Below are positions 1 to 6,000 of a DNA stretch of 38,930 nucleotides, piece by piece; position 1 is the stretch's first letter, and the number at the start of each line of letters is the position of its first letter. The position numbers were made by a program. Origin of the DNA: a virus (Duplodnaviria > Heunggongvirae > Uroviricota > Caudoviricetes); IMG/VR virus record IMGVR_UViG_2545824708_000026; one strand, 5' to 3'.

Positions 1-3000
1 ATGGACAACGACAAAATTGATCAACACAGCGACGAAATTGAAGTTGAGAGCGAAGAAAAAGAGCGCGGCAAAAAAATAGAAATAGATGAAGACCGACTCC
101 CCTCCCGGGCGATGGCAATTCATGAGCATATCCGCCAGGATGGTGAAAAAGAGCTGGAACGCGACGCAATGGCGCTACTGTGGTCAGCCATTGCGGCGGG
201 GCTGTCGATGGGCGCTTCGCTACTGGCAAAAGGGATATTTCATGTCGAACTGGAAGGAGTGCCAGGCAGCTTCTTACTGGAGAATCTCGGTTATACCTTT
301 GGTTTTATTATCGTCATTATGGCCCGCCAGCAATTATTTACCGAAAACACCGTGACTGCGGTACTACCCGTCATGCAAAAACCGACAATGAGCAACGTCG
401 GCTTACTTATGCGATTATGGGGCGTCGTGCTGCTGGGTAATATTCTCGGGACAGGTATTGCTGCATGGGCATTTGAATATATGCCTATCTTCAATGAAGA
501 AACTCGCGATGCATTTGTCAAAATCGGCATGGATGTGATGAAGAACACCCCCAGCGAGATGTTTGCCAACGCGATCATTTCCGGCTGGCTGATCGCCACT
601 ATGGTTTGGATGTTTCCTGCTGCGGGTGCGGCAAAGATTGTGGTGATTATATTGATGACCTGGCTTATTGCACTGGGTGACACCACCCACATCGTTGTCG
701 GTTCTGTTGAAATCCTCTATCTGGTGTTTAACGGCACGCTGCACTGGAGCGATTTCATCTGGCCCTTCGCACTACCTACTTTAGCGGGGAACATCTGCGG
801 CGGCACCTTTATCTTCGCGTTAATGAGTCATGCACAGATTCGTAACGACATGAGCAACAAGCGTAAAGCAGAAGCACGCCAAAAAGCAGAACGTGCGGAA
901 AACATTAAGAAAAATGATAAAAACCCAGCATAAATGGCGAGGGTTTAAGCAATCGAGCGGCAGCGTACTTACCCCGCAGTCCATTAGCGGGTATACTCAT
1001 GCCGCATTGTCCTCTTAGTTAAATGGATATAACGAGCCCCTCCTAAGGGCTAATTGCAGGTTCGATTCCTGCAGGGGACACCATTTATCAGTTCGCTCCC
1101 ATCCGTACCAGTCCGCAAAATCCCCTGAATATCAAGCCTTCCGTAGATTCACAGTTCGTCATGGTTCGCGTCAGATCGTTGACAGCCGCACCCCATGACG
1201 GGTAAAAAGTGGATAAAATAATTTTACCCTCCGGATTTTTACCCATGCTCACCGTTAAGCAGATTGAAGCAGCAAAGCCGAAAGAAAAACCATACCGCCT
1301 TCTCGATGGTAATGGCCTGTACCTTTATGTCCCTGTATCCGGGAAAAAGGTATGGCAGCTTCGCTACAAGATTGACGGTAAGGAGAAAATCCTGACCGTC
1401 GGAAAATATCCACTTATGACTTTGCAGGAGGCAAGGGATAAAGCATGGACTGCGAGGAAAGACATCTCGGTTGGCATCGATCCGGTAAAGGCGAAAAAGG
1501 CTTCGTCTAACAACAATTCCTTTAGCGCCATTTACAAGGAATGGTACGAGCACAAGAAGCAAGTCTGGTCAGTAGGCTATGCAAATGAACTTGCAAAAAT
1601 GTTTGATGACGACATTTTACCTATCATCGGCGGTCTTGAGATTCAGGATATTGAGCCGATGCAACTGCTGGAAGTAATCCGCAGATTTGAAGATCGCGGT
1701 GCAATGGAGCGAGCCAACAAAGCACGCAGAAGATGCGGCGAGGTTTTCCGTTACGCTATTGTCACCGGCAGGGCTAAATATAATCCGGCACCTGACCTTG
1801 CTGACGCCATGAAGGGATACCGCAAGAAGAACTTCCCGTTTCTTCCTGCCGACCAGATCCCGGCATTCAACAAAGCACTTGCAACATTTTCAGGAAGTAT
1901 CGTATCGCTCATTGCGACAAAAGTTTTACGCTACACAGCCCTAAGAACGAAAGAGCTTCGCTCCATGCTATGGAAGAACGTCGATTTTGAAAACAGGATT
2001 ATCACCATCGACGCCAGTGTGATGAAGGGTCGAAAAATTCATGTGGTTCCTATGTCAGACCAGGTGATTGAACTTCTCACTACGCTAAGCTCAATCACTA
2101 AACCAGTGTCAGAGTTTGTTTTTGCCGGGCGCAACGATAAGAAGAAGCCAATTTGCGAGAACGCTGTACTGCTTGTGATCAAACAAATCGGCTATGAAGG
2201 TCTGGAAAGCGGTCACGGATTCAGGCATGAATTCAGCACGATTATGAACGAGCACGAATGGCCTGCTGATGCTATTGAAGTGCAACTTGCACATGCCAAC
2301 GGCGGATCTGTGCGCGGGATTTACAACCATGCTCAGTATCTCGATAAGCGCAGAGAAATGATGCAATGGTGGGCGGACTGGCTTGATGAAAAGGGGGGGG
2401 GATCCGCCTTAACCACTATCGAGTGACATAAAGCCTTGCAATCCAGTGCAAAGCTTTGTGTGTATCAGTTTTGTCTGCCATCACATGGAGATAATTAATC
2501 TATAACGCACATAGATGGTTGATGTTAATAAAAGCGCTGATCATCTCCTTAAGAGTATTTTAAGAGCATTTGAGTTATTAGCATGGAGGCGTATTGCCTC
2601 CATGTTTTTACTACCATGTCGCATCTATGTAGAACGTTGGAGATGTAGTGGTGGACCCTTCAATCGATATTTGTCCTGTTGAAGCATTAATGGTGGCCAT
2701 TGCCATGCCAAATGAAACGCCATCAGCAGTGAACGGTACAGGGACATTTTTGGTTACTTTTGGTCTGCACCACCTCGGAAGCGTTAGAACAGTATTGCCA
2801 TTCGCAAATGAAGTGGCTGCCAGTTTAATATTAATTGAATTGGCAGTTAAACTTGACGGTGCCTGTACTGTTACGTTTGTTCCAGCCCACCATTGAACAG
2901 CTGCTCTTGGCGTGTAATCAACACGCGACCACCAGTCGATAATGGCAGAGCAGATAATTTCCGCATACAGACGATACCCTAACTGGCTTTGGTGAATGTC

Positions 3001-6000
3001 ATCACGCAGAAGTGGGTCGTATTGCGTGTTGAAATACTCTGGATATGGGGCCGGGAGCTGGTGAGTTGTTGTTACACAAATGACGTTATTGCCATATTTC
3101 ATCATCTGGCGTTTACCAGCCTCGCGCAACTCCGCAACACCATCGTAATTTGCTGATGGTTGACCAGCACCGCCAATAAATGACTGGCTATACCACATCC
3201 ACGGCTCAACCCAAACAGGGATACGACCAAGGCCATTGCAATATAAGACAAACTCATCTATCAGTGCCGCCATATAATCGCCGTTTTGGTTTGCCTGCCC
3301 TTCGTTAGTTCCGGCAACCATAATAACGATGTAAGCATCACCCGGCCCCTGAGCCTTCAGGAGATCTAACTGTTGCCTCATTGTCTGTCCGGCAACCGCC
3401 TTGTTTACAATGCTATATGAACGGTGGCCGTTCGCTCCATCCATTAATTGCGGAATGTACGAGCTGAACGCGGAAATGAAATCCTCAGCTGTACTATCAC
3501 CGTGGATAAGGATATTAAGTGGAGGCTTACCGTGCACGCCATTATCAGAGGTGTAGCTGCATAATCCAGTTACACGCGCAGAACCTCCAGATGCCGGGGT
3601 CAGTGCAACAAACCCAACTTCGTATACATCCCCTACATCAGCAGTATCAAAGGGCAAACGTATCCCAACGCCATTCATCGTTATCTGCGCCCAGTTTTTA
3701 CCTTGCAGTGATACGCCAACGGTTGCTTTGCCCGGGGCGTACGACAGTAAACCTCCTGGCAGCGGGAATGGAGTTCCTTCTGCTACTGGACCACCAATTG
3801 GTTTCTGTCTATAAGACCACTGTGTAGCACCTGGTGCCCCATAGAACATCATCCAACCACCAGAGCATCGCAGAACAATCCCAACTTCTGAGGCGGCCTG
3901 AGATTCCATGCGAATATGTGCAGAAATATGCTCTCCAATATCTATTGGTGCGAACAGGCCTGTTGTACGGTTAGTAGTTAAGGGGAAGATAGCTGCGCTA
4001 TCTGAGGATATGGTGACTTCACCTTCATAGAAGAACGTGTCACCATTTATGGAATAAACTTTACAATCTGACCATTCCACTCGCTTCATGCGAATAGGGT
4101 TTCGGTTGAGGATGGCCTGCTTAGCCAGGTAATCCACTTCTCCACCGGTTGCTTTAAAGTTCAGGTGCGTAAATTCAAACGTACCCTCCCCCTCGTACTG
4201 CAACGATTTAAACAGTGAGTACAGATCACTGTCGAATCTCAGGGTGACATTTTTATCAATGATTACTTTACTGTTCGCAAGGAAAGAAGCGTTAGCAGCT
4301 GTAGACGGTACGGTGTACACCATCTGATTTTTTGAATGATTAGAGAAGTAAACATACCCGTAGGTCGCAACACTATCGCGCCATGCCTGGACTACGTTAG
4401 AATTATCATAACTTGGAATTTTTGTGATCGACTGCAAAACAAGATCTTCCTGTGAGATAGCTCCGTTTACCAGATTAACACCTCCTTGAGATGCAAGATC
4501 TTGCCTGAGTTGGTCAGGGTCATACTTCAGCACATTTGGGAATTTGAACTGCTGTGCACCATACGCATCATAAACAGCCATAGAATGGCCTTGCTCAGTT
4601 ACGAATTTGGCAATCTGTCCGTTATATACCGGATAACCAGCAGCGTTAATGATGATTGGTTGCGAAACAGGAACGTGAGAACCGTCTTCGTTCTCCACAT
4701 AAACCTGAATCTGGTTTTCAGGATTTACCGGGTCAGTGTCAATTTTACCGATATAAATTTTGCCATTGGCTACAGCTTAAAAAGAACGAGCCATAGTGAA
4801 GAGTTGCGAAGGCATACTCACTACAACATTGGCATTTATTGAATCTGTCATTTGATTTGCTCCAGATACAAGGAATGGCCGCAGCATGGCTACGGTGAAT
4901 TTTGGGCATAAAAAAACCCAGCCGAACCTGGGTCGTTGCGTTGGTTATCTGTCAGTAGTTATGTACTGAAGGGTTTTTATGGATACCCCAGATGACGATT
5001 GGTTAATTTTTGACATTACCAAGACCATATTGACTACTTATAAAATGAGATCAATATTTAATCGCCCAATAACGGGTGTGTGTTGAGGTATATCATGGCG
5101 AAAAAACCAGGTGAAAACACAGGAAAAAACGGCGGAATATACCAAGAAGTTGGCCCGCGCGGCGGTAAGAAAGACAATTTTGCCACCGTCAAGGACAACG
5201 AAAGGCTTCCACCAACAACAAAGCCAGGTCATGGCTGGGTATTGGATAAGCGAACTCCAGACAGCAAAAAGTAATAATCAAGCCGGTTCACTCCGGCTTT
5301 TTGATATGTCGCTCGCAGAACTCAACAAGCCTGCTCATTAAGTAGCAGTAAGTCTCGTTGGCTCTTCCTGGTTCAACATCAACACCTACCCTTGAGCAGA
5401 TATCGAATGCCATGTGAGCGCACTCATGGGCAATAGTAGATAGTTTGCCATTGAACACGCCTATCACATGCAAAACACCATTCTCGCTACTCATTGTATG
5501 AGACGCTCCGTTGGCGTCAGAGTCATGCACGTCAACGCCAAGTTTTTGATGCAGGCGTTGCCATTCTGGAAAGTCTCTACAAAACACAATTGTACCGCTC
5601 TCAAAGAGCGGAACGAGCATCTTTGGTACGTTTCCAATGTTAACTTTTTTCATGGTATCCTGCTCAAAACTAAGGAGGTTGGTGTGTATATATCGCTATC
5701 TACCATTTTTTTCATCTGCTTAGCTATTTGGCTTTTAAGAATATGGCAGGATTGCTCTGTCAGCCATGCTGCTGCGGGGAGAAATAAAAACGCCCTCATA
5801 AAAGAAGCTGAAAACGTTGTCTTATCAATGGATCACCTTTCATGGACCGAGATGACTACAGGGCAACAAGAGGTTTATGAGTGTGCGATTGAGCGGTTAA
5901 GGCTGCTTAAATCGTACAAAAAGAACCACGCACCCGACTCATTCCCATTCCTGAAAGAATGGCCGAGATGGTATGACCCGAAAAAAGCAACCATCAACCG

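Follow-up and report, generated by a model that had tools for sequence, protein, structure and literature searches.

The gene at positions 2611-4851 (minus strand) of the stretch of DNA analysed here, a viral sequence of 38,930 nucleotides that we call the window, probably specifies a P22-like prophage tailspike in which a head-binding domain is joined to a receptor module free of any beta-helix and carrying a predicted esterase. The target of this spike would be an O-acetylated polysaccharide, and the stop codon that interrupts the gene is likely an artefact.

Prophage context and the interrupted tailspike gene

The tailspike belongs to a complete-looking P22-like (Lederbergvirus-type) prophage at argW, beside yfdC, in E. 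coli 179100. On one flank are found yfdC (1-933), argW, the tRNA-Arg(CCT) gene that constitutes the integration site (1009..1083, plus strand; ARAGORN and RefSeq annotation of the corresponding locus of strain PEC301), and the prophage integrase gene intS (1209..2426, plus strand; Pfam Phage_integrase, E 1e-38), which is convergent with the tailspike gene and separated from it by a gap of 184 bp containing no conversion gene. The other flank carries P22-type gp16, gp20, gp7, gp14, needle, portal and terminase genes. With the gp7, gp20 and gp16 homologues immediately upstream and intS and argW downstream, the tailspike gene is the distal member of the block of virion genes. Over positions 5000-29900 of the window, 68% of the sequence has a counterpart in Lederbergvirus E212, at 96% identity, and CUS-3 was also matched. 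A terminator-like hairpin with a T-run, a candidate from a consensus scan only, is located some 65 nt upstream of the start codon of the tailspike gene (4915..4934, minus strand).

By translation with the codon table, the tailspike gene runs on the minus strand from an ATG at 4851-4849 to a TAG at 2613-2611, and comprises 746 sense-codon positions plus the terminal TAG, with a TAA interrupting them at codon 25 (4777..4779, minus strand). This stop differs from the usual codon by one substitution only, A>T at position 4779 of the window as read on the coding strand; codon 25 is AAA (Lys25) in Sf6, in P22 and in every close homologue from E. coli. The first-pass annotation had described a single gene over this interval; its start, stop and strand stand, but its one continuous reading frame does not, the TAA having been overlooked. 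In fact, translation of 2611-4851 gives no 747-codon open frame in the window, and the frame joining the adaptor to the receptor domain is interrupted. Because of the TAA, the gene as written in the window cannot, judging from its sequence, yield a head-binding tailspike. The longest uninterrupted ORF (2611..4698, minus strand; GTG start at Val52, 695 aa), which is the GenBank call for E. coli 179100 (END32290.1), is without the first 51 residues of the head-binding domain and has only a weak AGG upstream, and restart at GTG-52 was rejected as a source of a working virion protein. Programmed readthrough or recoding of the stop was also rejected, because every relative has AAA, including the allele that is identical at all other 2240 positions.

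The TAA probably reflects a miscalled base in the draft assembly of E. coli 179100, which dates from 2013, since the gene is one base away from an intact allele and the other private differences of the window resemble homopolymer miscalls. Over the 2241 nt, the window gene and the intact allele (P0084) disagree at a single position in five of the six other loci examined (L012-L017), and at 2 nt in the sixth; the intact allele is carried by 17 contigs and the truncated one is on record from one contig only. The coding-strand context of the stop is TTTT[A>T]AAG, a base-after-homopolymer pattern that is found in the other window-private differences as well. The latter are GGT>GGG-type changes with the look of homopolymer extensions, and two of them are triple substitutions making G9 runs, one in the terminase gene and one in intS, whose product is identical to the integrase of locus L012 over 383 of 383 residues before the G9 run abolishes the stop codon.

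A smaller, though appreciable, probability is given to a real TAA, that is, a very recent nonsense mutation leaving a freshly inactivated tailspike pseudogene, in which case the 179100 prophage would at best release spikeless, non-infectious particles and a protein restarted at GTG-52 would have an incomplete head-binding domain. The TAA does stand in the deposited sequence, the 695-aa ORF is the annotated version, a lysogen imposes no selection on prophage tailspikes, and visibly decayed bio-locus prophages (strains A30 and GPEC1240) still carry this tailspike gene; furthermore, an A>T after TTTT differs from the classic T>G miscall that marks the most evident artefact sites. Against this stand the single difference in 2241 nt from an allele found in 17 other contigs, the normal lengths of all other virion ORFs, and the homopolymer-extension type of every other nearby window-private difference, a form that the TAA, as TTTT[A>T], shares. 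The apparent tailspike pseudogene and the apparent 8-residue IntS extension are probably both base-call errors of the draft assembly, and their over-interpretation is unwarranted.

Head-binding domain and architecture of the receptor module

The head-binding (tail-attachment) domain spans residues 4-114 (4510..4842, minus strand) and was identified by Pfam (Head_binding, PF09008, residues 4-114, E 2.4e-63, 211.8 bits, cut-off 24) and by PDB sequence matches. Residues 1-122 are identical to Sf6 gp14 (PDB 7sg7) at 108 of 122 positions (89%, E 1.7e-64), and the P22 tailspike was matched at E 1e-45 to 1e-47, so that the P22/Sf6 head-binding N-terminus proposed in the first-pass annotation is borne out. 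The PDB-chain sequence matches end at residue ~122. Residues 115-139 (4435..4509, minus strand), which include a stretch of 17 residues used to mark the segment, form a linker or junction modelled at low confidence (pLDDT 48-70, model residues 1-30). This is the point at which, in homologues, the receptor module meets different N-terminal adaptors, and a junction consensus, LRxxLAxxxGxxLVxGA, is common to homologues with other N-termini.

The AF2 monomer model (mean pLDDT 89.3, pTM 0.84) contains four discrete domains. According to this model, the receptor module of ~600 residues (residues ~140-746) is composed of a small alpha/beta subdomain (residues ~140-238; 4138..4434, minus strand; AF2 secondary structure, pLDDT 85-94), an all-beta, galectin/ConA-like sandwich (residues ~253-438; 3538..4095, minus strand), an SGNH/GDSL hydrolase domain, the predicted esterase (residues ~443-643; 2923..3525, minus strand), and a C-terminal beta-sandwich (residues ~658-746; 2614..2880, minus strand; pLDDT 94-97). 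The galectin/ConA-like sandwich, a putative carbohydrate-binding domain on the basis of AF2 and Foldseek, matches the Agrocybe galectin AAL, the GH16 glucanase 1mac and the BoNT binding domain (E ~1e-6, TMt 0.5-0.58), and the C-terminal sandwich may have a role in trimerisation or binding. No beta-helix is present in the secondary structure of the model, and no beta-helix protein is found among the top fold matches.

From sequence comparison, the module is a receptor cassette common to at least five adaptor types (at least four besides PF09008). It has been found behind PF09008, PF18668, PF03906 and PF12571 N-termini, a non-P22 tail protein of 800 aa bears it as well, and 147 cluster representatives match it at E<=1e-30. 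A tblastn search of 50,697 phage records gave no close homologue in isolated phages, the best matches being 28% identical in Aeromonas phiA047 and 23% in Enterobacter phages, a 59-residue ESCO9 fragment aside; no characterised phage is available as a functional anchor. The fragment concerns the last 59 aa of the tailspike, which are 95% identical to a gene relic in the phi92-like phage ESCO9.

Predicted catalysis and candidate substrates

The first-pass annotation had quoted three SGNH blocks, all of which were found: a GDS 12-mer at residues 447-458, a GxN 11-mer at 508-518 and a D-x-x-H 10-mer at 612-621. Conservation was counted over 57 homologues, down to 26% identity. In block I (G451-D452-S453; 3493..3501, minus strand), conserved in 57/57, Ser453 is the predicted nucleophile. 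The glycine of block II, Gly488 (3388..3390, minus strand), not mentioned earlier, is also present, is conserved in 56/57 and is predicted to lie in the oxyanion hole, like Asn516 of block III (G514-T515-N516; 3304..3312, minus strand; N516 in 56/56). Block V (D617-D618-I619-H620; 2992..3003, minus strand) would provide the Asp and His of the triad, D617 and H620 each being conserved in 56/56. At alignment columns conserved to 90% or more, the window allele shows no deviation.

Sequence searches give a fainter signal. Pfam GDSL_2 (PF13472) stays below its gathering threshold (20.5 bits versus 32.9, E 7.5e-4), an NCBIfam search of the tailspike gave no match, and the full-length PHROG match, 17606, is annotated 'unknown function'. 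In the PDB-chain search, carried out with the full protein and with a profile of 57 sequences, only the head-binding domain and the N-terminal adaptors of other members were matched, the SGNH part reaching only TesA at E ~0.17 in the sequence and profile search. Since the sequence searches of the PDB are weak for this part, a fold comparison was needed. The alpha/beta/alpha SGNH fold is present in the receptor part of the model, and the top Foldseek matches are two-domain carbohydrate esterases with a sandwich and an SGNH domain (2o14, 7tog), together with Gp48 of Shigella phage B2. A PF13472 match has been recorded in ~30 homologues that are 40-50% identical, and this, with the SGNH fold, therefore places the tailspike among the SGNH proteins by transitivity and fold. 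Structure prediction, for which a non-hydrolase fold would count against the assignment, gave an SGNH fold; fold model, fold matches and conserved catalytic blocks agree with an esterase-like receptor domain in place of a beta-helix, as the earlier reading had held. That the GDS, GxN and DxxH motifs are chance matches on an ordinary beta-helix depolymerase, a reading to which the weak Pfam match, taken alone, would lend itself (E 7.5e-4, below threshold), has next to no probability, being refuted by the block conservation, the AF2 model and the fold matches.

From the fold, the conserved residues and analogy, we infer that the spike de-esterifies a surface polysaccharide, most likely by removing O-acetyl groups from the host O-antigen. 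In the mechanism proposed, the head-binding domain (residues 1 to ~115) would dock the spike on the tail hub and the receptor module would bind O-acetylated host surface polysaccharide, most likely O-antigen. The SGNH domain would then hydrolyse O-acetyl esters, leaving the backbone uncut, with Ser453 as nucleophile, Gly488 and Asn516 in the oxyanion hole, and Asp617-His620. Repeated cycles of binding, deacetylation and release might bring the virion to the outer membrane, as in the model proposed for G7C gp63.1.

That the SGNH domain only binds, without catalysis, or acts as an acyl-transferase and not as a hydrolase, is very improbable. Some of its SGNH structural matches are indeed transferases (OatA, PatB, SsfX3), but in the family as a whole hardly any variation is seen at the Ser, Gly, Asn, Asp and His positions, which argues for retained catalysis, and hydrolysis would be expected of an extracellular virion protein without an acyl donor. 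Furthermore, the tested phage SGNH receptor proteins named in the literature examined, which included PMC13123978, PMC10743462 and PMC11654681, are all esterases or deacetylases. As to the target of a predicted esterase, the O-antigen is favoured by several observations. An acyltransferase gene, AT3(+SGNH), adjoins the spike gene, directly downstream, in 6 of the 9 complete genomes of E. coli carrying the spike, at the position held in Sf6 by the O-antigen acetyltransferase gene oac. The tailspikes of P22, Sf6 and HK620 (for HK620, PMC6024685) use the O-antigen, the capsule-specific tailspike of CUS-3 being an exception among P22-like spikes, and acetyl groups of the O-antigen are the target of the esterase spikes of coliphage G7C and of Shigella phages Moo19 and B2. 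Another surface polymer, such as an O-acetylated capsule (K antigen), colanic acid or enterobacterial common antigen, is a rather unlikely target of the module. It is suggested by structural neighbours that include sialic acid and xylan esterases, by the presence of the module in Enterobacter, Shewanella, Pseudescherichia and Aeromonas phage contexts with differing receptors, and by SGNH receptor proteins that act on capsules in Klebsiella prophages (PMC13123978) and in Acinetobacter phages.

An extension of the O-antigen reading, which we hold only tentatively and consider unlikely as a whole, is that P22-like phages with this spike would cross the O-antigen by processive de-O-acetylation without a depolymerase and that the spike would form a 'write/erase' pair with the prophage AT3-SGNH O-acetyltransferase. 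If so, the acetylation pattern of the lysogen and the specificity of the virion esterase would co-evolve as one unit of host range and superinfection exclusion, and the window prophage would, together with PEC301 and the 17 contigs that carry the identical allele, represent a variant that lost, or never had, the writer.

Comparison with known tailspikes and esterases

Sf6 gp14, P22 gp9 and the HK620 tailspike share with the window spike a homologous head-binding domain and the same gene position, at the end of the virion operon beside int and the attachment site; the integration site of Sf6 is also argW. P22-like tailspikes are homotrimers, present in six copies on the tail. From residue ~120 onward, no similarity was found between the window tailspike and these spikes, which are trimeric endoglycosidases (endorhamnosidase or endo-N-acetylglucosaminidase) with a right-handed parallel beta-helix of the pectin-lyase-like type, whereas the window spike has a lectin-like sandwich and a predicted SGNH esterase. 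P22-like temperate podoviruses are the best-understood model of tailspike-driven O-antigen penetration. Should the intact protein prove to deacetylate O-antigen or capsule, the 'esterase spike' strategy, which dispenses with depolymerisation and has so far been shown in N4-like phages, in Klebsiella prophages and in a few phages of Pectobacterium and Acinetobacter, would reach this group, and tractable P22/Sf6 genetics and an in vitro LPS-triggered ejection system would become available for the study of passage through the O-antigen layer by deacetylation alone.

Similar enzymes are found in cells and in other phages. YxiM of B. subtilis (2o14), PbeAcXE (7tog) and CE2/CE3 are 10-13% identical to the window spike, but these secreted enzymes of cells have no domain for attachment to a virion and lack the additional N- and C-terminal subdomains of the spike. 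The G7C tailspike gp63.1 (PDB 4qnl) deacetylates the O-antigen without backbone cleavage, an activity essential for infection (PMC10743462); no sequence homology to it was found in the esterase-bearing part of the window tailspike. Gp48 of the Shigella N4-like phage B2 (PDB 9d84) matches the window spike in Foldseek over ~400 columns (E 2e-6), but at 12% identity and with another virion type and adaptor, Moo19 and B2 being virulent. Esterase activity on pNP-acetate has been measured for purified Moo19 gp82 and for the tailspike complex gp48/49 of B2, and the two phages require modifications of the O-antigen, O-acetylation among them (PMC11654681). In Klebsiella prophages, receptor proteins with an SGNH domain and no beta-helix, two of them shown to be esterases, have been proposed as a widespread alternative to depolymerisation (PLoS Biol 2026, PMC13123978). 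Like the window spike, these are temperate-phage proteins lacking a beta-helix, but they are concerned with capsule K types and belong to gp11/gp12-type tail fibres, whereas the window spike has a P22 head-binding adaptor. A literature search, which did not cover the survey of Casjens and Grose (2016), found no published tailspike combining P22 head-binding and SGNH domains. Esterase tailspikes are already established in G7C, Moo19/B2, PP99 and Klebsiella prophages, and by analogy with them the window spike is a further member, with a predicted activity.

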